Shown here piece after piece: positions 6,725-42,496 of a DNA stretch of 64,000 bases. How positions within the stretch are numbered: the first letter of the stretch is position 1; each line of letters opens with the position of its first letter. The notes under the pieces were generated by a model that saw only the letters and a program-made list of their open reading frames with translations, ran no database searches and had not been told where the DNA came from. Made by a program: the position numbers and the translations under genes. The stretch covers positions 62,001-126,000 of the forward strand of contig JANJGN010000546.1 in assembly GCA_026770705.1 (NCBI GenBank), written 5' to 3'. This DNA comes from Isurus oxyrinchus. Taxonomy: Eukaryota.

Positions 6725-6764
6725 CTTGGAGAAGTGACATGAGGAAGTAGGATTTCCCGATCAT
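6725..6764 (-). CDS. Gene A signal-peptide exon, coding part MIGKSYFLMSLLQ (whole exon 6725-6806)
   Basis: ATG at 6764 and CAAG|GTAAT phase-1 donor that joins the V exon in frame (LLQ-VGLSQEW). Confidence 0.85.
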
Positions 6765-11758: not shown

Positions 11759-11898
11759 TCAAACAGTCTGTCGACTTCCTTTCACTGTTTGTCTCTCCCA
11801 GACACAGACTCCAGTGATAGTGATAACCACAGCCACAAGGAATATCACAGCTCGTATTCCCAGGATCAGGATCACGTGCAGAATCTCTCCTCCACTGT
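11759..11898 (-). CDS. Gene B transmembrane/terminal exon: (D)SGGEILHVILILGIRAVIFLVAVVITITGVCVWERQTVKGSRQTV*
   Basis: Pyrimidine tract plus TCTAG acceptor, phase 1. Hydrophobic helix with internal Arg. TGA at 11759-11761. Confidence 0.85.
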
Positions 11899-13018
11899 CT
11901 AGAGAACACACAGAAAGAAATCATCACTGACTCTCCGCTTTCAATCTCTCACTCTGGCTGAACAATCAAGCTTCATATCACTGCAACATTTGCTGTAATA
12001 TTGACTCATCCACTGGGATTCAATGTGGAATGAATGTTTTCATTGTAAACACTCGAAGAGTGGACAATCGGAACTTTCCCGTTAGCGTGGAACATTGGTG
12101 AGAATGGATCATTGTGCTGTTGGACTCCCTGTCCAATGTTTCTCTCCATCACTGTGTACAGGATTGTGCTGTAGAAAATTCTGGAAACGTTTAGTGCAGG
12201 GTGGAAATCCATCTCGGACGCGTGTGTGATTCGGGCAGGATCGAGATGGACTCCCCCACGGACTTACACCCCCCGCTTAATAAACAGTTCCAATCTTTAC
12301 CCAGAGAGAGGGGAGAATGTGGAACTCGCTCCCACTGGGAGTGGTTGAGGTGAGTAGTAGCGAATTAGGAAGTGAAATTGCTTGAAAAGCTGGGAGATGC
12401 AAGGGTTAAGTGCAACCGTGCCACCACTGGTGGGAGAGTGTAACTACAGCATAACGTTTACATAGGCAATCCCCATTATGAACATGGACATTGGACATCA
12501 TGTGAAATATGTGCACTGGAAAGCTGAGAACTTGATGTAAGCTTTTCACCAACAGGAATTCCCTTCCTAAACCTCTCCACCTCTCACTTACTCTCAGATA
12601 CTCAAACAAAATTTCACACAAAATCACGTAAGGACGAGTTGGGACAGGTGACTGGTCAAAGGGTTAGGTTTCAGGAAGCTTCTTAAAGGAGGATAGAGAG
12701 TTGGAGAGGCAGAGAGTATCTGTGAGTATCTCTGTGCATCTGAGTGTCTGTAGTAGACTTTGAAATTTCCATATTCTTCCATTAATATGAAAGGGAACAC
12801 AAATCCCAGAATCCAGGTCAACTCTCCGGTGCAACACTGAAGGAGGTCAGGAAACCCACAGGGCAGTATGTGATAGTGTATTTGTTTGTGAGTGTGTCTT
12901 TGTGTGTGCTCATAGATGTGGGATTGTGTGTCTGCAGCTGTCTATTTAGGTCTGTATATTTATGTGTGTTTGTGTAGTGTTTGAATCTAAGAGAGATGTT
13001 GAAGTCTGTGTAACTCAC

Positions 13019-13171
13019 GTTCCACAGTGATGGTTATGAACCCCTCCACTGCTCCATGTTCATTCTCTGCCACACACTGATAGTCTCCAGTGTCCATGGA
13101 TGTAACATGAGGAATCACCAACCACAGCTCATTGTTGGAACTTGTTCTGTTCATTGGGACATTGAGATGTC
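13019..13171 (-). pseudogene. 3' half remnant of the third Ig exon of gene B (acceptor and 5' half replaced)
   Basis: Encodes HLNVPMNRTSSNNELWLVIPHVTSMDTGDYQCVAENEHGAVEGFITITVE with a GTGAGT donor. Homology to exon 43506-43787 stops at about 13171. Confidence 0.85.
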
Positions 13172-13492
13172 AGCGCAGGACTCAACAAGACAGATCGCAG
13201 GTTTACCACAGAAAATGAACAACAATTTATATTTAAAGGGAAGAGAGTGCTGATTGGGTGGCAAGTGATCTCTGATTGGAGGAGAGTTGCCATGGAAAAT
13301 AATGTGTGCGAGCTGTAAAGTTTAGACAGCTTGTCTCTTCATTCAGCAATAATCAATTAAAGATCAATTAACTTCTATCGACTGTGAAGCACTTTGAGAG
13401 GCATGAGAATGTGGACACTGAGAACGGGCTGCACTGTCAGAGGGTCAGCGCTGAGGGAGTGCTGATGTGGAATGAAAGGTGTATGTACTTAC

Positions 13493-13789
13493 CTTGCACA
13501 GTTAGTACGAGGGTCCGCTCCGATGAAACAGATGGATATCTCACTCTGCAGCTGAGAGTGTGTCCGTGGTGTTTGAGTGATGGGATCAGGGTCAGAACAG
13601 AAGTATAGGTCAGAGTGACACCATGCTGAGTTACAGTGTTTGAGACTGATCCAGGTACGTCAGTGGGAGTGTCCCAGGTTAAGACAGGTGCTGCTGTTCC
13701 ATTGCACGTTGTGTTGAAGGTGCAGCTTACATCCACACGCTTTCCTGCAATAATTTCAGCAGGGAATATCGTGGGTTTATCAGTGAAAT
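13493..13789 (-). CDS. Gene B second C2-set Ig exon (297 nt, phase 1-1)
   Basis: FTDKPTIFPAEIIAGKRVDVSCTFNTTCNG...LSCRVRYP...LTVQ with TTAG acceptor and GTAAGT donor. Confidence 0.9.
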
Positions 13790-15104
13790 CTAACAGACAG
13801 AGAATGGATCCTTTTAGAGAAATATAACGTGAAGCATCAGTTCAAATAGAAACCACAGTCCCACAAGAGAAAGCACTTTTACAAGGATGATATCAGAACT
13901 GAGAGGTTACAACGATCATTTTAGAATTGTCTATTTTTACACTTGTTGAATCTCTGTCACTCAGATTAATACACTCTCACTCAGTGACCCTTGATTTGAC
14001 CAGACTGGGTGAGGGTGGAGGAACAGCTCACAGCTCGGGGAGAACAGACTCAGCATTTGGAAAAGGATATAGAGACACTGGAGAGGGTGGTAAAAAGCTT
14101 CACAAGGATGATCTCCGCAATGTGAGGCTTTACCTATCAGGAGAGGATGTACAGGCTGGGTCTCTGTTCTCTTGAACAGAGAAGGTTGAAGGGTGACCTC
14201 ATTTGACCTTTGAAGTAGTGAAAGGTTTTGATCGAGTAGACATGGAGAGAGTGTTTCCACTCATCACAATGAACAAAACCAGAGGCTGACAGTATAACAT
14301 CCTCACTAATAAATCCAATGGGGAATTCAGGAGAAACTTCTTTACCCAGAGAGTGGGGAGAATGTGTACTTCAAGAATCACTTCATTGGCTGTGAATCGA
14401 TTTAGGATCGTCCTGAGGTGGTGAAAGGCGCTATAGAAATGTGAGACTTGCTTTTGTATTTTGAAAGCAGGTTTCCAAGGATGAGATGGGAACTGAGAGG
14501 TCACAACAATCAGCAGCAACTTTCCTATTTTCAAACTTGGTGGGGAATGTGTCACTGAGCTGAATACACTTTCACTCCCAGACCCTTGAATTGCCAACAC
14601 TGGGGTGTGGGTGATGGAGCAGCCCACAGCTCATGGAACCCTGGCTCATCATTCTCTCAGAGATCTGGGTCACTGATCCCATTGCTCTCTGTGGGAGCTT
14701 CCTGTGTACAAACTCACTGCCACGTTAGACAGTGGCTATACTTCAAGAATTTCTTCATTGTCTGTGAAGTGATTTGAAGTTTGTTGAGGTGGTGAAAGGT
14801 GCTATAGGAATGCACGTCCTTCTTTTGTCAAATTGTTAGACTTTTAAACAGGATTAGAGAGACTGATGGGAGTGGATAGCCTGATAGCATTGATGGACAC
14901 AGTCAATACATTTAATCATTGACATTAAAGTGATTATTAGAGGTTGCTTTAAGACTGAACTGGAAGCAATCACCAGGTTATTGAGAATCAGACAGTGTGT
15001 AAAAATAAACTGTGTTTTGTGTTAATATGTAAACGTCACAGTTTGTGTTATTTCCCATTGAGTGTTGAATGTGAATTGTTGAGTAATTATAACACAGCAC
15101 TTAC

Positions 15105-15469
15105 CAGAAACATGAAGCTGGGTTACAGGATAGTAGTTGTATCTTTTCCTGCCGTCAAATTCTATCCTGAAAAAATAAGGTCCTGCATCTTCCCGTCTGA
15201 TGTTGTTTATAATCAGGGAACAGTCGCCATCTTTCAGGTCTCCAGACAGCCGGGTCCGATGGTGGAACCGTGGTAACTCGTGACTGTGATCCTTGGAGTG
15301 AAAGGCAATGGGAGAACCCAATTTGTGTGTTTCTTTATTACACCAGATTCCATCTCGTGGTTTGTTTTCCAACTCTACTGGATAACTGTAACGAAATGGA
15401 ATCTGTACACAGATTCCTGCGCTGTCACCTCTCGTGGAGTGTCACCTTTCCACTCTTGTGACAGTCCAG
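15105..15469 (-). pseudogene. Frameshifted V-set exon (B2) inside gene B
   Basis: 365 nt against 369 nt in paralogs: 4-nt deletion near 15410, TAG at 15375-15377, B-strand Cys changed to Phe. Splice sites intact. Confidence 0.88.
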
Positions 15470-15648
15470 CTGGGGAGAGAAATCTCAATATTTATCCCTG
15501 GATCCTCATTGTTTAATGAATCTCTTTGGATCTTCTTTGTCTAAGGAATCTTTTTGGATCCTCATTGTCTAAGGGATTATTTCTGATCCAAACCCCATAT
15601 TGTTGTATTGTTGATTCCGATGCAGCATTGTAGACTGACTTGTCCCCC

Positions 15649-18400
15649 AAAAAACTGTGTATCTCAGCCTTGAATATAATTAATGACCCAGCCTCTGCAG
15701 CTCTCTGCGGTATAGAATTCCACACATTCACTACCCTCTGAGAGAAGAAACTCCTCATCTCTGTCTTAAATGGGTGACCCCTTACTCTGAGATTATGCCC
15801 TCTGGTCCTAGACTCTCCCACAAGGGGAAACAACCTCTCAGCATCTACCCTGTCAAGCACCCTAAGAATCTTATATGTTTCAATAAGGTCAGCTCTCATT
15901 CTCCTAAACTCCAATGAGTACAGGCCCATCCTACTCAACCTCTCCTCATATGAAAATCCCTCCATTACTGGGATCAACCTAGTGAACCTTCTCTGGACTG
16001 CCTCCAATGCCAGTACATCTTTCCTTAGATAAGGGAACCAAAACTGCTCACAGTATTCTAGGTGTGGTCTAACGAGTGCCTTGTAAAGTTTTAGCAAGTC
16101 TTCCCTATTTTTATACTCCATTCCCTTTGAAATAAAGGCCAACATTCCACCTGCCTTCCCTATTAACTGCTGAACTTGTATGTTATCTTTCTGATGACCC
16201 CCAAATTCCTCTATGCTTCAGCTTTCTAATGTCTTTCTCCATTGAAATAATATTCAGCTCCTCTATACATCCTGCCACAGTGCAGCAGCTCACATTTTCC
16301 CACATTATATTCCATCTGCCAAGTTGATGCCCACTCACTGAACCTGTCTATGTCTCTCTGTAACTCTTCGTGTCACCCTCACCGCTTGCCTTCCCATCTA
16401 TTTTTGTGTCATCCGCAAACTTGGCGATAGTACATTAATTTCCCTCATCCAAGTCATTAATTATATATTGTAAATAATTGTGGCCCCAGCACTGATCCGT
16501 GTGGCAATCCACAGGTTGTCATCCTGAAAATGCCCCCCTTATCCCAACTCTCTGACTTCTATTAGTTAGCCGATCCTCTATCCATGCTAATATACTGCCC
16601 CCAACACCATGGGCTCTTATCTTATTAAGTAGCCTTATATGTGGTACTTTACTGAATGCCTTTTGGAAATCCAAATATATTACATCTACTGGTTCCCCTT
16701 TATCTATCCTGTTTGTTACCTCCTCAAAGAATTCTAATAAATTTGTCATGCATGATTTCCCCTTCATGAAGCCTGTGTTTGTTTAAATTATGCATTTCTA
16801 AATAGTCTGCTATTACATCCTTTATAATGGACTCTAACATGTTCCCAATGACAGATGTTAAGCTAACTGGCCTATAGTTACCTGTTTGTTGTCTCCCTCC
16901 CTTTTTGAATATGGGTGTTACTTTGGCAGATTTCCAATCCTCTGGGAGTTTCCCAGAATCTAAGGATTCTTGGAAGATTAAAACCAGTACATCCACTATC
17001 TCTGCATCTACTTCCTTTAATATCCTAAGATGCAACCTATCAGGTCCAGGAGACCTATCAGACTTGAGACCCATTAGTTTCGCTAGCGTTATTCTCTAGT
17101 GATAGTTATTGTATTTATTTCCTCTCCCCACCCCCCTTTTGCCCCTTGATTATTTAGTATTTTTGGAATGATATTAGTGTGTTCTACTGTGAAGACTGAT
17201 GCAAAGTATTTATTCAACTCCTCTGTCATTTTCTGGTTCCCCATTATTATTTCCCCAGCCTAGTTCTCTAAGGGGCCCATGTTCACTTTGGTCTCTCTCT
17301 CCCTTTTTATATATTTAAAGAAGCTTTTACTGTCCTTTTTTATATCAATTACTAGTTTACCTAGTTTTCTCCCTCTTTATTTATTTTTTGGTCATCTTCT
17401 GTTGGTTTTTAAAACTCTCTCAATCCTCTGGCTTACCACTAATCTTTGTCGTGCTGCATGTTTTTTCTTTCAATTTGACACACACCTTAACTTCTTTGGG
17501 TAACCCAGGTTGGTTTATTCTCTTCCTACAATCCTTCTTCCTCACTGGGATATATCTTTGTTGTGAGTCATGAGCTATTTTGTTAAAGATCTGCCATTGT
17601 TCATCCAGCATCTTTTCTGCTAAACCCCTTTCCCAGTCCACTCCAGACAACCCTGTCCTTATTCCTTTGTCATTACACTTATTTAAGTCCAGCACAGTTG
17701 TTTCCGACCCACGTTTCTCAGTCTCAAACGGAATGCTAAATTCTACCATGTTATGGTCACTGTTTTCCAGGGGATCATTTATTCTGAGATCATGTATGAA
17801 ACCTGCCTCATTACACATTACCAGATCCAAAATAGCCTGATCACTGGTTAGATCCACGACATATTATTCCAGGAAACTGTCTTGAATACACTCTATGAAT
17901 TCTTGCTCATGGCTACCTCTGCCAATTGGGTTTTCCCAATCTACATGAAGATTAATGTACTGCCTTTTTTACATGCCCTCATTATCTCATGATTTATTCT
18001 CTGTCCTATAGCCGAGCTACAGTCATGGGGTTGATAGACCACTCCCACCAGTTCCTTCCTCCACTTGTTATTCATTACCTCGAGCCATATGGATTCTATA
18101 CCCTCCGATCCAAGATCATTTCTTGCTTTCGTACTTATTCCATCTCCTATTAACAAAGCTACCCCACCACCTTTCCTTCCTGCCTGTCTTTTTGAAAAGT
18201 CACATACCCCTGAATATTTATTTCAAAGCTTTGATCTCCTTGTAACCATGTCTCCATAATGGCTATAAGATCAAACCCATTAACCTCTATTTGTGCCTTT
18301 AATTCATTTATGTTGTTCCAAATACTATGTGCATTTAAGTCAAGAGCCATTAATTTTGTCTTTTTATCATTTTCCTCCCTCTGACACTATTTGCTGATGT
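15649..18400 (-). mobile_element. CR1 LINE, long degenerate ORF2 (endonuclease to RT to C-terminus)
   Basis: LIAIMETWL, NYRPVSLTSVIG, GKSCMTNLLEFFEEVT, YLDFQKAF, LVRPHLEYC. Confidence 0.92.
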
Positions 18401-18549
18401 ATTTTAATGTTTGGACACTGTGTACCCACCTGTCACACACTGGGTATCATCACCAAAACAGCTATCCTGCAATGCTGACAAATCCTTTTGCTTTGTAAGC
18501 CTACATATACCCTCTCCAGAACACTCTCCCCATCTATTTAGTTTAAAGG

Positions 18550-20370
18550 CAATACTGAGGGAGAGCAGCACTGTCAAAGGGTCATTACTGAGGGAGTGTT
18601 GCACAGTTGGAAGCTCTGGAACAAGGGACTGCAGCATTATCTGAGGGTCAGTCGGGAGGGAGGTATTCAATGTTGGATTGTAAGATCTGAGGGAGCGCTG
18701 CAGAGTTGGAGCTTCAGTAGTGAAGGAGTGCTGCACTGTCAGAGGGTCAGTACTGAGGGAGTGCTGCACTGTCAGAGGGTCAGTACTGAGGGAGTGCTGC
18801 ACTGTTGGAGGGTCCGTACTGTGGGAGTGCTGCACGGATGGAGGATCAGTACAGAGAGATTTCTAAACTGTTGGAGGATCAGTACTGAGAGAGTGCTGCA
18901 CTGTCAGAGGGTCAGTACTGAGGGAGTGCTGCACTGTCAGAGGGTCAGTACTGAGGGAGTGCTGCACTGTCAGCGGGTCAGTTCTGAGAGAGTGTTGCAC
19001 TATCAGAGGGACAGGACTGAGGGAGTGCTGCACTGTCAGAGGGTCAGTACTGAAGGAGTGCTGCACTGTCGGAGGGTCAGTACTGAGGGAGTGCTGCACT
19101 GTTGGAGGGACATTATTGAGGGAGTGCTGCGATGTCGGAGGATCAGTACTGAGGGAGTGCTGCACGATCAGGGGGTCAGTACTGAGGGATTGCAACACTG
19201 TTGCAGGGTCTGTACTGATTGAGTGCTGCACTGTTGGAGGGTCAGTACTAAGGGAGTGCTGCACTGTCAGAGGGTCAGTACTGAAGGAGTGCTGCACTGT
19301 CGGAGAGTCAGTACTGAGGAGGTGCTGCACTGTCGGAGGATCAGAACTGAGGGGGTGCTGCACTGTCAGAGGGTCAGTACTGAGGGAGTGCTGCACTGTC
19401 AAAGGGTCAGTACTGAGGGAGTGCTGCCCTGTCAGAGGGTCAGTATTGAGGGAGTGCTGCACAGTCAGAGGGCCAGTACTGAGGGAGAGCTGCACTGTCG
19501 GAGGGTCAGTACTAAGGGAATGCTGTACAGTCAGAGGGTCAGTACTGAGGGAATGCTGTACAGTCAGAAGGTCAGTACTGAGTGAGTGCTGCACGGTCAG
19601 GGGGTCAGTACTGAGGGAGTGCTGCACTGTCAGAGGGTCAGTACTGAGGGAGTGCTGCACTGTCAGAGGGTCAGTACTGAGGGAGTGCTGCACTGTCAGG
19701 GGGTCAGTACTGAGGGAGTGCTGCACTGTCAGAGGGTCAGTACTGAGGGAGTGCTGCACTGTCAGAGGGTCAGTACTGAGGGAGTGCTGCACTGTCAGGG
19801 GGTGAGTACTGAGGGAGTGCTGCACTGTCAGAGGTTCAGTATTGAGTGAGTACTGCACTGTCAGAGGGTCAGTACTGAGGGAGTGCTGCACTGTCAGGGG
19901 GTCAGTACTGAGGGAGTGCTGTACTGTCAGAGGTTCAGTTTTGAGTGAGTGCTGCACTGTCAGAGGGTCAGTACTGAGGGAGTGCTGCACTGTCAGGGGG
20001 TCAGTACTGAGGGAGTGCTGCACTGTCAGAGGGTCAGTACTGAGGGAGTGCTGCACTGTCAGAGGGTCAGTACTGAGGGAGTGCTGCACTGTCGGAGGGT
20101 CAGTACTGAGGGAGTGCTGCACTGTCAGGGGGTGAGTACTGAGGGAGTGCTGCACTGTCAGAGGGTCAGTACTGAGGGTGTACTGCACTGTCAGAGGGTC
20201 AGTACTGAGGGAGTGCTGCACTGTCAGGGGGTCAGTACTGAGTGAGTGCTGCACTGTCAGAGGTTCAGTACTGAGGGAGTGCTGCACTGTCAGAGGGTCA
20301 GTACTGAGGGAGTGCTGCACTGTCAGAGGGTCAGTACTGAGGGAGTGCTGCACTGTCAGGGGGTGAGTAC
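18550..20370. repeat. 33-bp satellite array (ACTGAGGGAGTGCTGCACTGTCAGAGGGTCAGT)
   Basis: About 55 tandem units. Confidence 0.95.
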
Positions 20371-20581
20371 ATTGCGATTCCTGCTCTGCTCTATCGGTCT
20401 CTTGGCTGGAAATAAAAGCCGCTGTGTTACTGTTCAGAAACTGTTATTAATTGTGTTCCGGTCACAATTTTCCCTAAAAAACAGATTCTCTGATTCTCAT
20501 CAGAATACCTTTCTATGGGATCCTGCTGTGCATTATCTACACTGTTCTAGCTAATGTAGAATAAAAGGTGTCCGTACTTAC

Positions 20582-20878
20582 ATTGCACAGTTAGTACGAG
20601 GGTCCGCTCTGATGAAACAGATGGATATCTCACTCTGCAGCTGAGTGTGTGTCCGTGGTGTTTGAGTGATGGGATCAGGGTCAGAACAGAAGTATAGGTC
20701 AGAGTGACACCATGCTGAGTTACAGTGTTTGAGACTGATCCAGGTACGTCAGTGGGAGTGTCCCAGGTTAAGACAGGTGCTGCTGTTCCATTGCACGTTG
20801 TGTTGAAGGTGCAGCTTACATCCACACGCTTTCCTGCAATAATTTCCGCAGGGAATATTGTGGGTTTATCTGTGAAAT
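20582..20878 (-). CDS. Gene B first C2-set Ig exon (297 nt, phase 1-1)
   Basis: Same peptide as 13493-13789. Extra Cys (CTFNTTC) typical of the Siglec inter-domain disulfide. T|GTAAGT donor. Confidence 0.9.
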
Positions 20879-21737
20879 CTAACAGACAGAGAATGGATCC
20901 TTTTAGAGAAATATAACGTGAAGCATCAGTTCAAATAGAAATCACAGTCCCACAAGAGAAAGCACTTTTACAAGGATGATATCAGAACTGAGAGGTTACA
21001 ATGATCAGGAGAGATTTTCTTGCTCTTTGGCAGTAGTGTTTCTGTCTCTCAGCTTAATACACGTTCACTCCGAGACAGGTGAATTGAGAACACTGGATGA
21101 GAGAAGAGGCTCAGACCAGAGATTGGAGTTAAAAGCAGAATACTGTGGATGCTGGAAATCTGAAACCAAAACAAAAATTGCTGGAAAGACTCAGCAGGTC
21201 TGACAGTATCAGTGGAGAGGAAGACAGGGTTAACGTTTCGAGTCCGTATGACTCTTCATCAGACCAGAGGTTTGAGTTCACTGGCTTCTCATTTCCTCAG
21301 CGATCTGGGTGATTTATTACATTGTGGTTTGCTGGATCTTGCTGTGCACAAACTGCCAGCTGTGTTTAACATCTGTGACCACAATTCAGGAATAATTTCA
21401 TTGGCTGTGAAGGGATTTGGATCCTCCTGAGGTGGTAAATTGCGCTGCAGAAATGCACATCTTTCTTTTATCGATAAGTCAGACTTTTAAACAGGACAGG
21501 AGAGATTGATGGGAGTGGATAACCTGATAATACAGTTAATGCTTTTCATCATTGATATTAAAGTGAGTATTAGAGGTTGCTTTAGGACTCAACTGGAAGC
21601 TATCACCAGGTTATTGAGAATCAGACAGTGTGTTATAATAAGCTGTGTTTTGTGTTAATACGTAAACGTCACAGTTTGTGTTATTTCCCATTGAGTGTTG
21701 AATGTGAATTGTTGAGTAATTATAACACAGCACTTAC

Positions 21738-22106
21738 CAGAAACGTGAAGCTGGGTTACAGGGTAATAGTTATGGCTCGGACCATTGTCAAATTCTATTC
21801 TGAAATAATAAGTTCCTGCATCTTCCCGTCTGATGTTGTTTATAATCAGGGAACAGTCGCCATCTTTCAGGTCTCCAGACAGCCGGGTCCGATGGCGGAA
21901 CCGTGGTAACTCGTGACTGTGATCCTTGGAGTGAAAGGCAATGGGAGCCCAGGGAATCTGTTCCTCATTATTAAACCAGAGTCCACCTCGCGGTTGGCTT
22001 TCCAAATGTGATGGGTAACTGTAATGACATGGAATCTGTACACACGAACCTTCCTGCGCTGTCACCTCTCGGGGACTGTCACCTTTCCACTCTTGTGACA
22101 GTCCAA
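21738..22106 (-). CDS. Gene B V-set Ig exon with the essential Arg intact (GTYYFRIE)
   Basis: 369-nt open exon, canonical splice sites, Siglec Cys pattern. Confidence 0.92.
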
Positions 22107-23642
22107 CTGGGGAGAGAAATATCAATATTTAACTCTGGAAGGTTTGTAGATCCATTAGACTCGATATCCACCCCCTCCATCACTGGGGCACAGTGGCTGC
22201 AGTGTGGACCATATACAGGACACACAAGGAACTCCTCAAGGTTTCACAATGGATGGAAGAGAATCCTGGACACAGGAGTGGACAAGTTCATTCTACATTG
22301 GCTCATGGTCCTCAGGACCCTGTTTAGTGAAGCCAGTGAGACAGTGTCACTGTGCCTTGTATTATAATGCTCCTGTGTAGCCCCTTGGATTGTTTTTTGT
22401 TACAGTTAAGGCGCTATGTAAATATAATCTATTGCTCTCTGCTCATCTGGACCATTTGGATTCTTCATTTCAAGCGGCCTGGTGACTGCTTCATGTTCAG
22501 TGCAAATGCAGCCTCTAATTATCACTTTAATGTCAATGATTAAATGTGACCCAACACTGTGTCTACAAGACACACCAACTGAGATCCATTCAGTGCTGAT
22601 TTACAAGACAGGACAATGGATTAGGAGCCCTCAGAACTCCCCCCATTATCACCGTCATGAATCACTAATTAGCCTAACATTCCTGTCTGCTCTTCAACAC
22701 AGCTGATTGGTTAATCTGGTTCAATATGATTGGTGCACTTTAGACCTTCATTGTCTGAGGAATCTCTTTGGATCCTCATTGTTTCAGGAATCTCTTTGGA
22801 TCCTCATTGTCTAAGGAATCTCTATGGATCCTCATTGTCTAAGGGATTATTTCTGATCCAAACCCCATATTGTTGTATTGTTGATTCCGATGCAGCATTG
22901 TAGACTGACTTGTCCCCAAGCTCAGCACTGACCCTACTCCAGCAGACACTGTGAAACACACTAACAAAGCGCCTCTCGCCTGAGCTCTGCATGTGTCAAG
23001 AGCAAAGACAAATATACAAACTGTATATTGACACCTTTACACACGGACAGCTTTGCCTTCCTTCTCTCTTTCAGTTATCTTGCTCCCTTATTGAAGTATC
23101 TAGCAAGGTGAGAATGGACAGGAAGTGTGACACTGAACAGCCTGTCTATTCTAGGAGCTGCTGTGTTGTCTTCATGGGAAATTCTGAATAAAATCAGCAA
23201 AAGACACATTTTAGGATATTGCTATCAGACACCTAACATAGGGAGAGACTTCATCCTCCAGTTTTTATCCCTGATTTTCTACTCAACCTTTTACCACCCT
23301 TCCCCCCATCCACACTGACTTACATAGGCTCCCAGTCAAGCAGTGCCTCCATTTTAAGATTCTCATCCTCAATTCCCAATCCCCCCAACCCCCTCTCCAG
23401 TCCCTACCTCTGTAACCTCATCCAGCCCCTTCACCCCTCTGAGATCTCTGCTCTCCTCCAATTCTGCTGTCAGACAGGGAGTCAGTGTATATCAGTGAGC
23501 ACAGGGGTGATGGGTCAATGGGACTTGGTGTGAGTTTGTACACTGGCTCACTGCTGAATCTGTTCCCTATCAGAGCTCAATAAGAATGATCTTTTACAAA
23601 GACTATTCACCATAAATCTGTCCGAGCTGACGATGATATTAC

Positions 23643-23682
23643 CTTGGAGAAGTGACAGGAGGAAGTAAGATTTCCCGATCAT
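23643..23682 (-). CDS. Gene B signal-peptide exon, coding part MIGKSYFLLSLLQ (whole exon 23643-23724)
   Basis: ATG at 23682 and phase-1 GTAAT donor. Confidence 0.88.
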
Positions 23683-24133
23683 TGTCCACTCCCAGATAAT
23701 TCCTCAGCTTCTAACTCTGATTTTCTGAAAGAGAAAGGAGTTAATGAGACCTCACCTCTTGTCCGACAGCTCTCGAGAGATTAGAACTGCTTTTAGACAA
23801 TGTCTTCACGGATCTAATTTGATTCTCTGTGGGATGATAGGTGCTCTGCAGAGAGTTACAAGGCTTTAAGAAAGGAAAACATTGAAGGACTTGCATTTCT
23901 ATAGCACCTTTCAACACCTCAGGATATCCCAAAGCTCATGTCCCTGCTCTTCCCTCATCCCTTGAGCTAGAAAGATGTTCTGTACAACAGACTTGAGCCT
24001 CACACCCAGATCTCAATAATCAGTAGAAATCTTTCAAAGGCATCAATCATTGGAATCTATCTTTATAAAGTCACAACATCAACAAAGGACGGTGTTGGTG
24101 GTGGAAGTGAATTCCAATCGTTCCGTTACTTAC

Positions 24134-24274
24134 CCAGGACCTGTCCGACTGCTCGCCTGGGGAAGAACTGCCCACACGCTCTGCTTGGGCTGAATGACCT
24201 CTTTCTGTGCTGCTCCCTCTGTGTGTTTAATTAGAAAGGGTTGATGTGTCACTGTGAGTCAAAATGTGGAAGTG
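24134..24274 (-). promoter_or_regulatory. Gene B putative exon 1 and promoter
   Basis: Paralog of 7214-7354 with GTAAGT donor and AAAATGTGGAAGTG ETS-type motif. Confidence 0.6.
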
Positions 24275-24504
24275 GTCACTTTATGAGAATGCAACTGATG
24301 TTTAGAGTTTTTTGAAGCTGTTAACCCTTTGCATTCTGGACTTGTGATGATATTTCTGCTCAAAAGTGGAAAGTCATTGACCAGGAATTCTCCTGTGGGT
24401 CATTGGGATTCAAACCCTCTCTCGCTGTCTGAGTGAGAAGGTCGTCTGTTCGAGATTCATTTGGCAAAATTCAGACTGACAAACCAGACCGGCAATCGGT
24501 GTCA

Positions 24505-24899: not shown

Positions 24900-25050
24900 A
24901 TTATTTCTGATCCAAACCCCATATTGTTGTATTGTTGATTCCGATGCAGCATTGTAGACTGACTTGTCCCCAAGCTCAGCACTGACCCTACTCCAGCAGA
25001 GACTGTGAAACACACTAACACAGTGCCTCTAGCCTGAGCTCTGCATGTGT
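24900..25050 (-). other. Orphan fragment of Siglec-gene intron 2
   Basis: TTATTTCTGATCCAAACCCCATATTG... matches about 22848-22995, 15578-15648 and (inverted) 38335-38480. Confidence 0.8.
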
Positions 25051-25899
25051 CGGAGGTGCCGCTGTGGTGGGTTCATGACCTTCACCATCCGCTTCACTGA
25101 GTTTCGGTTAAAACTGAACTGGAACACACACTAAACACTGATGGAAACCATCACTTCCTCTTCTCCAACATGAAGAGTTTCAGCAGAAGAAGTAAACTGT
25201 TGCTGAAAAGGAACTTTCTTCATCATATCACAGAATCACACAGAATAGCAGGAGGCCATTCATGCCATTTTGGCTGTGCTAGCTCTTTAAAAGAAGCACA
25301 CAATTGGTTTCAATCCACCTCTCTTCCCCCATCGTCCTTCAAATTCTTCCTGTCTCAGATTGAATCCAAATTCATGAATATAAATCCCCTCAGATGGGAG
25401 TAACCATCACTGAGCAGGCAGGTTAGGTTTTATTGTGCACAGCGAGTTGCTGTGATCTGGAAGGTGCTGCCTGAAAGGGCGGTGGAAGCAGATTCAATAG
25501 GATCTTTCAAAATACTTGCAGAGTGTGAGAGAATGGGAGATTGGGACCAATTGGATATCTGTCCCAGGAGACCAGGACAGGGACAATGGGCTGAGTGGCC
25601 TCTTTCTGTGCTGTTTGATTCTGTGGTTTTCTAATATTTATCTGCGCTGCAGATCAGAGACAAACAGGAAACAATAAACTTCTGATCTTTCCACACAGGC
25701 TGAATTGTCATCTCTTTATTTTCAGCCAGTTTGCTTAATTCTTGTGGTTTGGTGGTGAAACTGTGCAGCAAGTGTGAGTGTTGGGTTGTAGATCTGTCTA
25801 TTCTGACTGCTGCTGTGCTCATGGTGACTTCTCAATTACATGAGAGTCTCTGAGATCCTCCACACCCAAGGATTAAGGAGAGACTTCCAAAGATTCAGG

Positions 25900-28800
25900 A
25901 CGCAGTACTGAAGAGGTGCTGCACTGTCAGAGGGTCAGTACTGAGGGAGTGCTGCACTGTCAGAGGGTCAGTACTGAGGGAGTGCTGCACTGTCAGAGGG
26001 TCATTACTGAGGGAGTGCTGCACTGTCAGAGGGTCAGTACTGAGGGAGTGCTGCACTGTCAGAGGGTCAGTACTGAGGGAGTGCTGCACTGTCAGAGGGT
26101 CAGTACTGAGGGAGTGCTGCACTGTCAGAGGGTCAGTACTGAGGGAGTGCTGCACTGTCAGAGGGTCAGTACTGAGGGAGTGCTGCACTGTCAGAGGGTC
26201 AGTACTGAGGCAATGCTGCACTGTCAGAGGGTCAGTACTGAGGGAGTGCTGCACTGTCAGAGGGTCAGTACTGAGGGAGTGCTGCACTGTCGGAGGGTCA
26301 GTACTGAGGGAGTGCTGCACTGTCGGAGGGTCAGTACTGAGGGAGTGCTGCACTGTCAGAGGGTCAGTACTGAGGGAGTGCTGCACTGTCAGAGGGTCAG
26401 TACTGAGGGAGTGCTGCACTGTCAGAGGGTCAGTACTGAGGGAGTGCTGCACTGTCAGAGGGTCAGTACTGAGGGAGTGCTGCACTGTCAGAGGGTCAGT
26501 ACTGAGGGAGTGCTGCACTGTCAGAGGGTCAATACTGAGGGAGTGCTGCACTGTCAGAGGGTCAGTACTGAGGGAGTGCTGCACTGTCAGAGGGTCATTA
26601 CTGAGGGAGTGCTGCGCTGTCAGAGGGTCAGTACTGAGGGAGTGCTGCACTGTCAGAGGGTCAGTACTGAGGGAGTGCTGCACTGTCAGAGGGTCAGTAC
26701 TGAGGGAGTGCTGCACTGTCAGAGGGTCAGTACTGAGGGAGTGCTGCACTGTCAGAGGGTCAGTACTGAAGCAATGCTGCACTGTCAGAGGGTCAGTACT
26801 GAGGGAGTGCTGCACTGTCAGAGGGTCAGTACTGAGGGAGTGCTGTACTATCGGTGGGTCAGTACTGAGGGAGTGCTGCACTGCCAGAAGTTCAGTACTG
26901 AGGGAGTGTTGCACTATCGGTGGGTCAGTACTGAGGGAGTGCTGCACTGTCAGAGGGTCAGTACTGAGGGAGTGCTGCACTGTCAGAGGGTCAGTACTGA
27001 GGGAGTGCTGCACTGTCAGAGGGTCATTACAGAGGGAGTGCTGCACTGTCAGAGGGTCAGTACTGAGGGAGTGCTGCACTGTCAGAGGGTCAGTACTGAG
27101 GGAGTGCTGCACTGTCAGAGGGTCAGTACTGAGGGAGTGCTGCACTGTCAGAGGGTCAGTACTGAGGGAGTGCTGCACTGTCAGAGGGTCAGTACTGAAG
27201 CAATGCTGCACTGTCAGAGGGTCAGTACTGAGGGAGTGCTGCACTGTCAGAGGGTCAGTACTGAGGGAGTGCTGTACTATCGGTGGGTCAGTACTGAGGG
27301 AGTGCTGCACTGCCAGAAGTTCAGTAGTGAGGGAGTGTTGCACTATCGGTGGGTCAGTACTGAGGGAGTGCTGCACTGTCAGAGGGTCAGTACTGAGGGA
27401 GTGCTGCACTGTCAGAGGGTCAGTACTGAGGGAGTGCTGCACTGTCAGAGGGTCATTACTGAGGGAGTGCTGCACTGTCAGAGGGTCAGTACTGAGGGAG
27501 TGATGCACTGTCAGAGGGTCAGTACTGAGGGAGTGCTGCACTGTCAGAGGGTCAGTACTGAGGGAGTGCTGCACTGTCAGAGGGTCATTACTGAGGGAGT
27601 GCTGCACTGTCAGAGGGTCAGTACTGAGGGAGTGATGCACTGTCAGAGGGTCAGTACTGAGGGAGTGCTGCACTGTCAGAGGGTCAGTATTGAGGGAGTG
27701 CTGCACTGTCAGAGGGTCAGTATTGAGGGAGTGCTGCACTGTCAGAGGGTCAGTACTGAGGGAGTGCTGCACTGTCAGAGGGTCATTACTGAGGGAGTGC
27801 TGCACTGTCAGAGGGTCAGTACTGAGGGAGTGCTGCACTGTCAGAGGGTCAGTACTGAGGGAGTGTTGCACTGTCAGAGGGTCAGTACTGAGGGAGTGCT
27901 GCACTGTCAGAGGGTCAGTATTGAGGGAGTGCTGCACTGTCAGAGGGTCAGTACTGAAGCAATGCTGCACTGTCAGAGGGTCAGTACTGAGGGAGTGCTG
28001 CACTGTCAGAGGGTCAGTACTGAGGGAGTGCTGTACTATCGGTGGGTCAGTACTGAGGGAGTGCTGCACTGCCAGAAGTTCAGTACTGAGGGAGTGCTGC
28101 ACTGTCAGAGGGTCAGTACTGAGGGAGTGCTGCGAAGTCAGAGGGTCAGTACTGAAGCAATGCTGCACTGTCAAAGGGTCAATATTGAGGGAGTGCTGCA
28201 CTGTAAGAGGGTCAGTACTGAGGGAGTGCTGCACAGTAAGAGGGTCAGAATTGAGGGAGTGCTGCACTGTCAGAGGGTCAGAAGTGAGGGAGTGCTGCAC
28301 TGTCATAGGGTCAGTACTGAGTGAGTGCTGCACTGTCAGAGGGTCAGTACTGAGGGAGTGCTGCACTGTCAGTGAGTCAGTATTGAGGGAGTGCTGCACT
28401 GTCAGAGGGTCAGTATTGAGGGAGTGCTGCACTGCCAGAAGTTCAGTACTGAGGGAGTGCTGCACTGTCAGTGAGTCAGTATTGAGGCAGTGCTGCACTG
28501 TCAGAGGGTCAGTACTGAGGGATTGCTTCACTATCGGTGGGTCAGAACTGAAGGAGTGCTGCACTGTCAGTGAGTCAGTATTGAGGGAGTGCTGCACTGT
28601 CAGTGAGTCAGTATTGAGGGAGTGCTGCACTATCGGTGGGTCAGTACTGAGGGAGTGCTGCACTGTCAGAGGGTCAGTACTGAGGGAGTGCTGCACTGTC
28701 AGAGGGTCAGTACTGAAGCAATGCTGCACTGTCAGAGGGTCAGTACTGAGGGAGTGCTGCACTGCCAGAAGTTCAGTACTGAGGGAGTGTTGCACTATCG

Positions 28801-30712
28801 GTGGGTCAGTACTGAGGGAGTGCTGCACTGTCAGAGGGTCAGTACTGAGGGAGTGCTGCACTGTCAGAGGGTCAGTACTGATGGAGTGCTGCACTGTCAG
28901 AGGGTCATTACTGAGGGAGTGCTGCACTGTCAGAGGGTCAGTACTGAGGGAGTGCTGCACTGTCAGAGGGTCAGTACTGAGGGAGTGCTGCACTGTCAGA
29001 GGGTCAGTACTGAGGGAGTGCTGCACTGTCAGAGGGTCAGTACTGAGGGAGTGCTGCACTGTCAGAGGGTCAGTACTGAAGCAATGCTGCACTGTCAGAG
29101 GGTCAGTACTGAGGGAGTGCTGTACTATCGGTGGGTCAGTACTGAGGGAGTGCTGCACTGTCAGTGAGTCAGTATTGAGGGAGTGCTGCACTGTCAGAGG
29201 GTCAGTATTGAGGGAGTGCTGCACTGCCAGAAGTTCAGTACTGAGGGAGTGCTGCACTGTCAGTGAGTCAGTATTGAGGCAGTGCTGCACTGTCAGAGTG
29301 TCAGTACTGAGGGATTGCTTCACTATCGGTGGGTCAGAACTGAAGGAGTGCTGCACTGTCAGTGAGTCAGTATTGAGGGAGTGCTGCACTGTCAGAGGGT
29401 CAGTACTGAGGGAGTGCTGTACTGCCAGAAGTTCAGTACTGAGGGAGTGCTGCACTGTCAGAGAGTCAGTATTGATGGAGTGCTGCACTGTCAGAGGATC
29501 AGTACTGAAGCAATGCTGCACTGTCAGAGGGTCAGTTTTGAGGGAGTGCTGCACTGTCAGAGGGTCAGTACTGAGGGAGTGCTGCACTGTCAGAGGGTCA
29601 TTACTGAGGGAGTGCTGCACTGTCAGAGGGTCAGTACTGAGGGAGTGCTGCACTGTCAGAGGGTCAGTACTGAGGGAGTGCTGCACTGTCAGAGGGTCAG
29701 TACTGAGGGAGTGCTGCACTGTCAGAGGGTCAGTACTGAGGGAGTGCTGCACTGTCAGAGGGTCAGTACTGAAGCAATGCTGCACTGTCAGAGGGTCAGT
29801 ACTGAGGGAGTGCTGCACTGTCAGAGGGTCAGTACTGAGGGAGTGCTGTACTATCGGTGGGTCAGTACTGAGGGAGTGCTGCACTGCCAGAAGTTCAGTA
29901 CTGAGGGAGTGCTGCACTGTCAGAGGGTCAGTACTGAGGGAGTGCTGCACAGTAAGAGGGTCAGTACTGAAGAGGTGCTGCACTGTCAGAGGGTCAGTAC
30001 TGAAGCAATGCTGCACTGTCAGAGGGTCAGTATTGAGGGAGTGCTGCACTGTCAGAGGGTCAGTACTGAAGCAATGCTGCACTGTCAGAGGGTCAGTACT
30101 GAGGGAGTGCTGCATTGTCAGAGGGTCAGTACTGAGGGAGTGCTGCACTATCAGAGGGTCAGTACTGAGGGAGTGCTGCACTGTCAGAGGGTCAGTACTG
30201 AGGCAATGCTGCACTGTCAGTGGGTCAGTATTGAGGGAGTGATGCACTGTCATAGGGTCAGTACTGAGGGAGTGCTGAACTGTCATAGGTTCAGTACTGA
30301 GTGAGTGCTGCACTGTCAGAGGGTCAGTACTGAGAGGGTGCTGCACTGTCAGAGGGTCAATGCTGAGGGAGTGCTGCACTGTGGGAGAGACAGTACTGAG
30401 GGAGTGCTGCACTGTCGGAGGGTCAGTACTGAGGCAGAGCTGCACTGTCAGAGGGTCAGTACTGAGGGAGTGCTGTACTAATGGTGGGTCAGTACTGAGG
30501 GAGTGCTGCACTGCCAGAAGTTCAGTACTGAGCGAATGCTGCATTATCGGTGGGTCAGTACTGAGGGAGTGCTGCACTGTCAGAGGGTCAGTACTGAGGA
30601 AGTGTTGCACTGTCAGAGGGTCAGTACTGAGGGAGTGCTAAACTGTCAGAGGGTCAGTACTGAGGGAGTGCTGAACTGTCAGAGGGTCAGTACTGAGGGA
30701 GTGCTGGACTGT
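25900..30712. repeat. 4.8-kb 33-bp satellite array with higher-order periodicity
   Basis: About 145 units; variant monomers recur at 429-bp and 792-bp spacings. Confidence 0.97.
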
Positions 30713-30719
30713 GAATTAT

Positions 30720-30950
30720 TGGAATCTGTCTTTATAAAGTCACAACATCAACAAAGGACGGTGTTGGTGGTGGAAGTGAATTCCAATCGTTCCGTTACTT
30801 ACCCAGGACCTGTCCGACTGCTCGCCTGGGGAGGAACTGCCCACACGCTCTGCTTGGGCTGAATGACCTCTTCCTGTGCCGCTCCCTCTGTGTATTTAAT
30901 GAGAAAGGATGGATGTGTCACTTTGAGACAAAGTGGGAGGTGTTTGCTGT
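30720..30950 (-). promoter_or_regulatory. Orphan exon 1/promoter copy with no downstream leader exon
   Basis: Near-identical to about 24052-24260 and 37050-37258; donor at 30803/30802; runs into satellite. Confidence 0.7.
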
Positions 30951-31019: not shown

Positions 31020-31810
31020 CCATGTAACAGGCTCGAGGGGCTGAATGGCCTCCTCCTGTTCCTGTGTAATGGGATTGAGGGGGCTGAATGGGCCCCTCAT
31101 GTTCATGTGTAACAGGCTCAAGGGGTTGAACGGCCTCCTCCTTTTCTTTTCTTACAAGCTCGAGAGGCTGAATGGGCCTCCTCCTGTTCCTGTGTCATAG
31201 GCTCGATGGGCTGAATGGGCCTCCTCCTGTTCCTCTGTCACAGGCTCGATGGGCTGAATGGGCCTCCTCCTGTTCCTGTGTCACAGGCTTGAGGGGGCTG
31301 AATGGTCCTCTTCCTGTTCCTGTGTAACAGGCTCGAGGGGGCTGAATGGGCCTCCTCCTGTTCCTGTGTAACAGGCTCGAGGGGGCTGAGTGGGCCTCCT
31401 CCTGTTCCTGTGTAACAGGCTCGAGGGGGCTGAGTGGGCCTCCTCCTGTTGCTGTGTAACAGGCTCAAGGGGCTGAATGGGCCTCCTCCTGTTCCTGTGT
31501 AACAGGCTCAAAGGGCTGAATGGCCTCCTCCTTTCTTCTGTGTAACAGACTCGAGGCGGCTGAATGGGCCTCCTCCTGTTCCTGTGTAACAGGCTCGAGG
31601 GGGCTGAATGGCCCTCCTCCTGTTACTGTGTAACCGGCTCGAGGGGGCTGAATGGGCCTCCTCCTGTTCCTGTGTAACAGGCTCGAGGAGCTGAATGGGC
31701 CTCCTCCTGTTCCTGTGTAACAGGCTCGAGGAGCTGAATGGGCCTCCTCCTGTTGCTGTGTAACAGGCTCGAGGGGCTGAATGGGGCCTCCTCCTTTCTT
31801 CTGTGTAAAT
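31020..31810. repeat. ~42-43-bp minisatellite (TGTAACAGGCTCGAGGGGCTGAATGGGCCTCCTCCTGTTCCTG) resembling the CR1/SINE 3' tail
   Basis: Tandem units; same motif at 61570-61760 and similar to the CR1 end near 11610-11630. Confidence 0.9.
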
Positions 31811-36100: not shown

Positions 36101-36490
36101 AGGAATCTTCACAAGGTTTACTATATCATCTAAACTTTTTGAATCCATGGCACCGGGTGGCATTAAAGTTCGCATCAATCCCTAAATCTTACTGCCACAC
36201 GTGGATAAGAGGGTCGCTCGCCTCTTCTCCTCCCCATCAATGTCATTCACTTGGAAAAAGAACGCGAGGAGTTCACCATAATGGGACCAATCGCCCACCG
36301 TTGGGTCGAAAGGATCAACTCTTCCAAACTGCAGCATTCTTCGAGGGGACTGCTTCGGTTATTAGGATGGAAATTATATTTATAATCACTGCGTGAGGCA
36401 CAGCCCGATTTCAGTTCCCTTGCTCTCATTCCTTGATTTTTCTTCCTTGTTTTTCACCTCATCACCAGTTTATTCAACCCTTGTCACTAC
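33120..36490 (-). mobile_element. Ty3/Gypsy LTR retrotransposon (gag, protease, partial pol; probable 3' LTR)
   Basis: Gag QRSKFNSR..DMLRDQLVC, protease VDTGA, LLGRNWL, integrase C-terminus VYVKDFREGPKW, PPT near 33840-33860, PBS-like TGGTGATGAG near 36460. Confidence 0.85.
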
Positions 36491-37583: not shown

Positions 37584-37665
37584 AGTTTGAGAGTCAGAAG
37601 CTAAAGGAATATCTGGGAGTGGACAATAATTGGGAAATATTACTGCCTCCTGTCACTTCTCCAAG
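37584..37665 (+). pseudogene. Gene C leader exon with start codon mutated from ATG to ATA (37626-37628)
   Basis: GGACA-ATA-ATT-GGG-AAA against GGACA-ATG-ATC-GGG-AAA in A and B; in-frame TAA upstream in the same exon. Confidence 0.85.
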
Positions 37666-38530
37666 GTAATATCATCGTCAGCTCAGACAGATTTATGGTT
37701 AATAGTCTTCGTAAAAGATCATTCTTATTGAGCTGTGATTCGGAACCAATTCAGCAGTGACCCAGTGCACAAACTCACACCAACTCCCATTCACCCATCA
37801 CCCCTGTGCTCCCTGATATACACTGACTCCCTGTCTGACAGCAGAATTGGGGGAGTGCAGAGATCACAGATGGTTGTAGGTTTGAGTAGGTTACAGAGAC
37901 AGGGAGTGGAGCGGAGTGATGGAGGGATTGGAAATCAAGTGTGAAAATAATCACATCGAGGTGTTGTTGGACTGGGAGCCAGTGTAGGTCAGCGAGTGAC
38001 TTGTGGGGTCGGGGTGGGTGTGTGCGGAGGTGAAAGCTTGAGTGGAAAATTGGACACAAAATTCAGGGGATGAAGTCTATCTTGTGGCTAGCACTCTGAC
38101 AGCAATGGCCTGAAATTAGTGTCTTTTGCTGATTTTAATCAGAATTTCCCATGAAGACAACACAGCAGCTCCTAGAATAGACAGGCTGTTCAGTGTCACA
38201 CTTCCTGTCCATTCTCACCATGCTAGATACTTCAGTAAGGGAGCAAGATAACTGAAAGAGAGAAGGAAGGTAAAGCTGTCTGTGTGTAAAGGTGTCAATA
38301 TTCAGTTTGCATATTTGTCTTTGCTCTTGACACAGGCAGAGCTCAAGCTAGAGGCACTGTGTTAGTGTGTTTCACAGGGTCTGCTGGAGTAGGGTCAGTG
38401 CTGAGCTTGGGGACAAGTCAGTCTACAATGCTGCATCGGAATCAACAATACAACAATATGGGGTTTGGATCAGAAATAATCCCTTAGACAATGAGGATCC
38501 AGGGTTAAATATTGATATTTCTCTCCACAG

Positions 38531-38899
38531 TTGGACTGTCACAAGAGTGGAAAGGTGAAACTCCACGAGAGGTGACAGCGCAGGAAGGTTCGTGTGTACA
38601 GATTCCATGTCATTACAGTTATCCATCGTGTCTGGAAAACCAACCGCGAGGTGGAGTCTGGTTTAATAATGAGGAACAGATTCCCTGGGCTCCCATTGCC
38701 TTTCACTCCAAGGATCACAGTCACGAGTTACCACGGTTCCACCATCGGACCCGGCTGTCTGGAGACCTGAAAGATGGCGACTGTTCCCTGATTATAAACA
38801 ACATCAGACGGGAAGATGCAGGACCTTATTTTTTCAGAATAGAATTTGACAATGGTCCGAGCCATAACTATTACCCTGTAACCCAGCTTCACGTTTCTG
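38531..38899 (+). CDS. Gene C V-set Ig exon (open frame; GPYFFRIE)
   Basis: CCACAG acceptor, G|GTAAGT donor, 369 nt, close to the gene B V exon. Confidence 0.88.
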
Positions 38900-40214: not shown

Positions 40215-40511
40215 ATTTCACAGATAAACCCACGATATTCCCTGCTGAAATTATTGCAGGAAAGCGTGTGGATGTAAGCTGCACCTTCAACACAACGTGC
40301 AATGGAACAGCAGCACCTGTCTTAACCTGGGACACTCCCACTGACGTACCTGGATCAGTCTCAAACACTGTAACTCAGCATGGTGTCACTCTGACCTATA
40401 CTTCTGTTCTGACCCTGATCCCATCACTCAAACACCACGGACACACTCTCAGCTGCAGAGTGAGATATCCATCTGTTTCATCGGAGCGGACCCTCGTACT
40501 GACTGTGCTAT
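40215..40511 (+). CDS. Gene C C2-set Ig exon
   Basis: 297 nt, TTAG acceptor and GTAAGT donor, near-identical to the B copies. Confidence 0.88.
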
Positions 40512-42400: not shown

Positions 42401-42496
42401 CTCTCCCTGACTGTTTGTTGGTTTTATATCTTGAGTCTATGAGTTCACTGGTTGAGTAAATTCGAATTGCACTCCATATACACTTGTTAGTTGATA

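Follow-up and report, generated by a model that had tools for sequence, protein, structure and literature searches.

A chimeric Siglec-like locus in the shark Isurus oxyrinchus, likely joined by a deletion between two paralog units

The question raised by gene B is what a gene made of parts of two paralogs can encode. The window, that is the whole stretch analysed, comprises 64,000 nucleotides of Isurus oxyrinchus DNA (contig JANJGN010000546.1, positions 62,001 to 126,000, forward strand). A sequence-only reading had described two broken units, B1 and B2, fused by unequal recombination or deletion and still able to encode a 380-aa receptor of new domain architecture. All exons of gene B lie on the minus strand and are bounded by AG/GT ends. 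The features in window coordinates are the following.

23683..24478, minus strand: conserved upstream region of unit B1 (putative promoter and 5' UTR), 89% match upstream of the gene C and gene A leaders.
23643..23682, minus strand: leader exon, 40 nt, with ATG and phase-1 donor; leader-to-V joints of the family occur in RNA contigs.
21738..22106, minus strand: V1, intact Siglec-type V-set exon, 369 nt, with Cys35, Cys40, Cys98 and Arg116 in YYFRIE.
20582..20878, minus strand: C2a, Siglec domain-2 C2-set exon, 297 nt; intron read-through stops after 246 aa.
20372..20581, minus strand: flank marking the TM-less B1 class, at 18 genome places at ≤1 mismatch.
18687..20370, no strand: 33-bp satellite, repeated 51 times; the arrays of stand-alone B1-type loci are much shorter.
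15649..18560 (approximate), minus strand: decayed LINE, part of the B1-class unit, its 3' part cut by the deletion.
15648..15649, no strand: deletion breakpoint between LINE and leader-V intron of the second paralog, with TT microhomology and one extra G.
15470..15647, minus strand: leader-V intron remnant of unit B2, 178 bp, carrying the family's commonest acceptor.
15105..15469, minus strand: dead (frameshifted) V exon (psiV), 365 nt, 4-nt deletion, splice sites intact.
13493..13789, minus strand: C2b, second copy of the domain-2 exon, 297 nt; 6 nt differ from C2a, domain sequence identical.
11759..11898, minus strand: short TM/stop exon, 140 nt, with Arg inside the membrane segment and a tyrosine-free tail of about 12 residues.

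The layout read earlier from the letters agrees with these features. Unit B1 possesses leader, V and C2 but no TM, and its upstream sequence, a putative promoter, is conserved among paralog leaders. Unit B2 has no leader and consists of the 3' end of a leader-V intron (178 bp; about 175 in the earlier reading), dead V, C2 and TM. The satellite and the LINE lie between the two units; the LINE holds an RVT_1 fragment (E 1.2e-5, below Pfam's cut-off) and is presumably of the type called CR1. The frame L-V1-C2a-C2b-TM was reproduced exactly, all junctions being phase 1: 40+369+297+297+140 = 1143 nt, or 380 aa. V-C2a-TM and V-C2b-TM, which skipping could give equally well, are also open, at 281 aa. 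Because every exon of the gene is phase 1, an open frame after skipping is automatic and is not evidence for a product.

By sequence likeness gene B is a shark CD33-type Siglec-like receptor, the CD33-type assignment being made by best-match ranks to mammalian proteins. V1 matches best Siglec-5 (E 6.5e-16), Siglec-7, Siglec-8, MAG, sialoadhesin and CD33; C2 matches domain 2 of MAG and CD33. Pfam detects V-set (E 1.5e-13), Ig_CD22 (above cut-off) and C2-set_2 (E 2.2e-9). The order of domains is that of a type I Siglec, N-terminal V-set and then C2-set, with leader and TM exons present. In alignment YYFRIE corresponds to YFFRVE in Siglec-5 and to YFFRME in Siglec-7, and Arg116 within it is taken by us to be the essential Siglec arginine. 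Cys35/40/98 and 159/165/217 align with cysteines of Siglec-5/7 and MAG, and are predicted candidates for intra-sheet and V-to-domain-2 disulfides. The charged TM (ILILGIRAVIF...) and the short tail without Tyr are features of activating paired Siglecs of the Siglec-14/-15/-16 type, and the intramembrane Arg with the tyrosine-free tail suggests an activating-type exon. Likeness to CD33-related mammalian Siglecs (CD33, Siglec-5, -7, -8) and to activating Siglec-14/-15/-16 thus extends over V, domain 2 and the charged TM. Excerpts of PMC11011055 describe, as Siglec features, an essential V-domain arginine and a V domain with 1-16 C2 domains; in activating forms the TM bears a charged residue.

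The assembly contains 753 V, 523 C2 (domain-2) and 227 short-TM matches to cluster motifs. Members of the cluster include long forms bearing an ITIM, short forms with an Arg-TM, and forms that lack a TM; the long ones end in LFYANI and TEYAQI, which are ITIM- and ITSM-like by consensus. Internal V exons are usual here: two to five V exons precede C2 in 22 of 45 units (1.06 Mb sampled), and multi-V proteins are annotated in other sharks. In contrast to mammalian Siglecs, the shark cluster has hundreds of copies, and genes in the sample have 1-5 V exons in tandem. Annotated shark and ray homologs (101 automatic gene models) are up to 93% identical to V1, and some, e.g. P0026 and P0033, have leader, domain 2 and Arg-TM exon as in gene B. 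These homologs are built of one to seven V and a single domain 2, followed by other C2 exons or TM. Three of the models hold two whole genes end to end. The architecture claimed as new is in part ordinary: a V domain and then several C2 domains is how Siglecs are normally built, and members of this family form such a series with other exons. Only the doubling of domain 2 is unusual (two in a row in 0/101 homologs). There is precedent for V-C2-C2 Siglecs and for Siglec fusion-deletions, and novelty would be limited to a doubled domain 2. Automatic annotations already name shark Siglec-like genes. No paper on a shark Siglec-like expansion was found; gene-family tables of shark genomes, e.g. those belonging to PMC8455134, could list it. 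Excerpts of a teleost Siglec paper (PMC7226832) state that inhibitory CD33-related Siglecs are lacking in fish genomes and do not mention sharks.

Judged from its sequence, the joint is likely the result of a non-homologous deletion between two paralog units. The breakpoint joins the LINE to the leader-V intron, and only TT (2 nt) is common to both sides. Of the two origins proposed earlier, deletion stands and homologous unequal crossing-over does not, TT alone being shared. The edge of a LINE insertion was ruled out as the joint, because in stand-alone loci the LINE continues beyond the breakpoint position. Homologous crossover through an orphan 150-bp copy of the leader-V intron (window 24901-25051; also upstream of many promoters) was likewise ruled out: the joint starts in the middle of that segment and then follows the true intron beyond the end of the orphan copy. 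According to excerpts of PMC4042635 and PMC7379906, the human SIGLEC14/5 allele is a deletion in a paired-Siglec cluster that fuses the 5' portion of one gene to a neighbour's 3' portion. Gene B resembles it as a 5'-part/3'-part fusion by deletion in a paired-receptor cluster. SIGLEC14/5 arises between highly similar 5' regions and yields a normal Siglec-5 coding sequence, whereas gene B has a non-homologous joint, retains both V-C2 sets and a frameshifted internal exon, and is present in six copies; no crossover within homologous sequence giving a normal-length hybrid is seen at its joint. No intact parent of the dead V was found in the genome at ≤1 mismatch, so that fusion and frameshift may have occurred in either order.

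Five contigs carry the junction DNA, at 6 places in all, and the 381 bp compared are 99-100% identical; 34 further matches of the 40 scored contain the LINE side alone, without the joint. The motif of the 4-nt deletion and that of the dead V are each found at the same 6 places only. The order L-V-C2-satellite-LINE-psiV-C2-TM is common to 6/6 copies, and their non-coding segments differ by 0-3.5%. On one contig two copies are separated by 2.4 Mb, and the window is 99.2% identical over 12 kb to the copy on C150. Some of the six may, from their sequences, be uncollapsed alleles. The region is rich in repeats, and an assembly artefact across satellite and LINE could be imagined; it is highly improbable, since the base-exact joint recurs at all six places, with substitutions, satellite length and flanks particular to each, and it lies in non-satellite sequence, creating a sequence present in neither parent. 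The misassembly feared earlier is accordingly very unlikely at this joint.

Fifteen stand-alone TM-less units of B1 type were found in the assembly, which argues against B1 as a uniquely broken gene. None of the 15 has a short-TM or long-form exon as far as the following leader or the limit of the DNA covered. V is present in 13 units and lacking in 2. L-V-C2 is open to 245-286 aa in all 13 V-bearing stand-alone units and in 5/6 fused ones. As to B1 possibly being the 5' end of a long inhibitory gene, only 66 bases of its flank match long-form introns, weakly, and the match to gene C is at least as good.

The splice sites of the dead V are those of working exons. Its donor, CTG/GTAAGT, is that of 57/57 sampled intact V exons, and its acceptor is the commonest in the family (51/69). 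Inclusion leads to a stop at codon 267, 567 nt upstream of the last coding junction; under the 50-55 nt rule such a message is predicted to undergo nonsense-mediated decay (NMD).

RNA was represented by assembled contigs of four runs, which drop rare forms, from organisms sharing 0.11-0.39 of words with the window. V-to-C2 joints are present in 4/4 runs; leader-to-V and C2-to-TM joints of the family are also present. None of the 10 joints listed from these runs is C2-to-C2, C2-to-V or V-to-V. A V-to-V joint is expected from multi-V genes yet is missing, so the absence of C2-to-C2 is weak and proves nothing. The read-through region 20372-20548 is covered by no contig in the four runs, an absence that likewise proves nothing. 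The listed joint 20583-11899 carries G at the C2 end where the window has T, and is therefore a generic family joint, not one of this locus. The absence of transcripts linking 20582 to 13789 or 11898 was named earlier as a refutation; the joints listed from the four runs include C2-to-TM joints of the family and none specific to the locus (a weak negative).

The favoured reading, held with some confidence, is a chimeric Siglec-like locus formed by deletion and then copied, whose default transcript gives no membrane-anchored receptor. The 5' part (leader, V, C2, satellite, LINE) is an ordinary member of the TM-less class, and the 3' part (dead V, C2, Arg-TM) is the leaderless remains of an activating-type gene. 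A single deletion event would have joined them, the V frameshift having become fixed ahead of the spread of the module; the copies would later have diverged through segmental duplication, gene conversion and exchange of 5' ends. The C2a donor is predicted to join the next strong acceptor, that of the dead V, leading to the stop at codon 267 and NMD; alternatively the transcript may read into the intron after C2a. Either route would give at most a soluble V-C2 protein, of 266 aa by inclusion or 246 aa by read-through. Exon skipping would yield the anchored forms (281 or 380 aa) in minor amounts, and the fused gene would have arisen incidentally in the birth-and-death turnover of a paired-receptor cluster. 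Against the default-splice prediction is the lack, among the RNA joints listed, of C2-to-V and of any transcript of the gene B locus; against the favoured reading as a whole is the state of the anchored frames, with the 380-aa frame open in 4/6 copies and the TM exon intact in 6/6.

The 380-aa receptor inferred earlier is unlikely as the main product. It would be an activating V-C2-C2-TM form with domain 2 doubled, made by skipping of the dead V alone, messages with psiV being cleared by NMD. All its splice sites are canonical, the module is present six times, C2b is the nearest acceptor once one exon is skipped, and NMD would enrich in-frame messages. It requires, however, that a single exon be passed over selectively whose splice sites fit the family consensus and equal working ones in 6/6 copies; C2a or C2b is frameshifted in the remaining 2/6 copies, domain 2 is not doubled in the annotated homologs, and the missing C2-to-C2 joint adds a weak negative. 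Cys264 of C2b, presumably the V-linking cysteine by alignment with MAG/CD33, would be without a V partner. Broken exons have a family background of 4/38 C2 and 12/69 V. Slightly less likely is a selected, expressed six-copy module in which the dead V is skipped or NMD-cleared, and a TM-less gene, re-anchored by the deletion as an activating V-C2-C2-TM receptor, has been amplified. Six-fold presence could reflect selection, a point against the favoured reading. C2b has pN/pS 0.53 (2 synonymous and 3 non-synonymous variants, n=5, frameshifted copy dropped; family 0.46), a value made uninformative by few variants and gene conversion, from which selection is inseparable; rows of non-modal length were dropped (1/19 B1-type V and C2; 1/6 for each fused exon).

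Skipping of two exons to a standard 281-aa V-C2-TM activating Siglec, the TM-less 5' gene gaining the TM of the 3' gene as a hybrid of paired receptors would, is more doubtful still. L-V1-C2a-TM or L-V1-C2b-TM is open in 6/6 copies by one route or the other, the TM exon is intact in each, and V-C2-TM is a normal family form with its joints in RNA. Two exons would nevertheless have to be skipped over 8.7 kb, and joint 20583-11899 is not from gene B. Improbable is separate transcription of the units, B1 as a functional secreted V-C2 decoy lectin and B2 as silent debris. Its product overlaps that of the favoured reading, and the difference is the claim of function. The open L-V-C2 frames of B1-type units, the lack of a hydrophobic stretch past the leader (best 19-residue mean 0.74, versus 2.95 for TM), the AATAAA/ATTAAA hexamers on the gene-sense strand of the LINE (10, raw count) and pN/pS of 0.5-0.6 are consistent with it. 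The copies are young, however (about 1-4% apart), so open frames are expected anyway; V has been lost in 2/15 stand-alone units, and read-through contigs number 0 in 4 runs.

As a record of how a cluster of paired receptors turns over, the locus is clean and datable, with one deletion and one frameshift followed by amplification and exchange of 5' ends. Should the skipped isoform exist, it would give such clusters a way to produce receptors of new length. Should the selected module exist, its amplification would have taken place within a cluster of several hundred paired Siglec-like genes that is so far undescribed. The setting, a shark Siglec-like family, is the larger point than the gene B locus itself.

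Gene B is encoded on the minus strand by six exons. All have AG/GT ends and phase-1 joints, at the positions proposed by the sequence-only reading.

23682-23643, minus: leader exon
22106-21738, minus: V1 exon
20878-20582, minus: C2a exon
15469-15105, minus: dead V exon, frameshifted
13789-13493, minus: C2b exon
11898-11759, minus: TM exon

The first three exons form unit B1, the last three unit B2. A 33-bp satellite and a decayed LINE with a reverse transcriptase (RT) fragment lie between the units. V1 is about 87% similar to the dead V, and 6 of 297 bases distinguish C2a from C2b. Pfam backs the assignment to Siglec-type V and C2 domains. The nearest solved relatives of V1 are Siglec-5, -7, -8, MAG, sialoadhesin and CD33; C2 aligns with domain 2 of MAG and CD33 and has their cysteine spacing. 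The database relatives, at ≤93% identity, come from sharks and rays and are labelled Siglec-12/13/14-like or CD33-like, which assigns the window to a shark. The TM exon encodes an intramembrane Arg and a short tail that lacks tyrosine, like the activating Siglecs as described in PMC11011055.

The window spans positions 62001-126000 of contig C546 in assembly G000 (G000:C546:62001-126000). Within this assembly, 381 bases spanning the LINE-intron joint are found at six places at 99–100% identity; 34 further scored matches carry the LINE side only. The 4-nt deletion of the dead V and its private motif are both present at these six places and nowhere else in the assembly. The order of parts is identical in 6/6 copies. 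By sequence comparison the joint is best read as the end of a non-homologous deletion, since in stand-alone loci the LINE extends past the breakpoint, the intron side begins mid-way in the leader-V intron, and only TT is common to both sides (one extra G). An insertion edge is ruled out by the continuing LINE, a homologous crossover by the shared TT alone. The earlier proposal of unequal recombination or deletion thus stands for deletion, now extended to six places, and falls for homologous crossover. Non-coding parts of the copies are 0–3.5% apart. Two copies lie on contig C52, 2.4 Mb from each other. The C121 copy has a different V1 (88%), apparently a sign of later 5' exchange. The window copy and the C150 copy, 99.2% alike across 12 kb, may be alleles. 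The human Siglec cluster, too, has fusion-deletion, pseudogenes and gene conversion (PMC4042635 and PMC7379906); unlike human SIGLEC14/5, gene B has a non-homologous joint, a retained second V-C2 and six copies.

Unit B1 belongs to a class and is no accident. In the assembly, 18 places carry the motif of its flank. In the stand-alone units of this type (n = 15: all 12 non-fused motif places plus 3 others), neither a short-TM nor a long-form exon precedes the next leader or the limit of the retrieved DNA. Two of them are without V, and the 13 with a V read open to 245–286 aa. The view of B1 as a singular broken gene is therefore abandoned: the fusion placed a TM exon downstream of a normally TM-less gene type. 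Three such genes stand in direct tandem at G000:C838:33001-73000, and in all three the L-V-C2 read-through is open for 246 aa; they are candidate secreted decoys.

The L-V1-C2a-C2b-TM frame is open, as had been claimed (1143 nt, 380 aa). The 281-aa forms L-V1-C2a-TM and L-V1-C2b-TM are likewise open. With the dead V included, a stop follows at codon 267; an unspliced C2a donor gives a stop after 246 aa. The dead V donor is that of 57/57 intact V exons, its acceptor is the commonest of the family, and both are kept in all six fused copies. Because these are working family splice sites and the family regularly has internal V exons, dead V inclusion is the simplest prediction. The stop would lie 567 nt ahead of the last coding junction, predicting nonsense-mediated decay if the TM exon is last; any protein left would be soluble, a V-C2 ending in a 31-residue tail, and would closely resemble the 246-aa read-through product. 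Two of the six copies have a frameshift in the 380-aa frame and four keep it open; this does not suggest strong maintenance, although the numbers are small. Domain 2 twice in succession is found in 0 of 101 annotated relatives. The proposed 380-aa receptor therefore keeps its open frame but, with the dead V splice sites intact and two copies frameshifted, is unsupported as a product; a doubled-domain-2 receptor is improbable. Nor would several C2 domains be a new architecture, being standard in Siglecs (1–16 per protein in the part of PMC11011055 consulted).

RNA was available as contigs from four runs of three samples. Family splice joints are leader-V, V-C2 and C2-short TM; links between C2 and other exons occur as loose ends. 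Among all 10 joints listed on 20372-22130 none is C2-to-C2 or C2-to-V, in contigs that drop rare forms and from animals that may be without the module; under the same limits no contig covers 20372-20548. The joint 20583-11899 is the generic family joint and not one specific to gene B. V-to-V joints are also missing from the 10, though 22 of 45 sampled units are multi-V. Splicing to a single V per transcript could account for this; the different linker, EPSQEW, with which internal V exons often begin speaks for tandem use. The V-to-V absence is probably a limit of the contigs or of the read-mapping method, and with it missing too, the missing C2-to-C2 and C2-to-V joints count little against either product.

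Gene C, 37626-45633 (+), is an L-V-C2-TM paralog 92–96% alike to unit B2 outside V. ATA in place of the start codon, 1-nt insertion in the TM exon; LINE and satellite in the C2-TM intron. A near copy with identical lesions lies at G000:C52:538147-546160. Of gene A (minus), an L-V-V-V-C2 gene that runs out of the window at its start, the window contains the leader and the first V (6725-6764 and ~2103-2480); a long-form exon of the gene lies at G000:C546 ~46.8 kb. A divergent Siglec V domain at 63117-63413 (-), whose nearest matches are sialoadhesin and MAG (E 8e-11), has a frame that stops just ahead of the essential-Arg position and a LINE fragment directly upstream. At 24901-25051 and 30714-30942, satellite flanks orphan copies of the leader-V intron and of the upstream region; the intron copy is repeated upstream of many paralog promoters. 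Broken ORFs at 33920-36396 and 62056-63166 (-) are presumably LTR-retrotransposon gag/pol pieces; a Pfam scan of three such ORFs gave no match. Satellite arrays of 33 bp (146 copies), 37 bp and 43 bp (25903-30712, 56404-57876, 2-856, 60563-61186, 31023-31808) yield spurious long ORFs.

The Siglec-like cluster, several hundred genes, is spread over C52, C71, C121, C150, C189, C323, C385, C546, C838 and other contigs. Members have 1–5 tandem V exons, in ITIM/ITSM-like long, Arg-TM short and TM-less forms. Two domain-2 motifs (G000:C34:15136816 and 15183311) and one V motif (G000:C25:36073479), on much larger contigs, are possible synteny anchors. No paper on a shark Siglec-like expansion was found in the literature searched, including the accessible part of PMC8455134; subscription journals and supplements lay outside the search. 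Assembly-wide matches (≤1 mismatch), which may contain uncollapsed alleles, number 753 for V, 523 for domain 2, 227 for short TM and 64 for the long-form exon, with 0 for each reversed-motif control. An annotated stretch of 1.06 Mb holds 45 leader-defined units: 22 with 2–5 V exons ahead of C2, two of the fused type, the remainder with a single V, without C2, or with the leader alone. In the long forms the further C2 exons differ, the TM is another one, and the tail bears ITIM- and ITSM-like motifs. Broken exons make up 4/38 C2 and 12/69 V among the family exons sampled. The family appears to be a paired-receptor cluster in rapid turnover.
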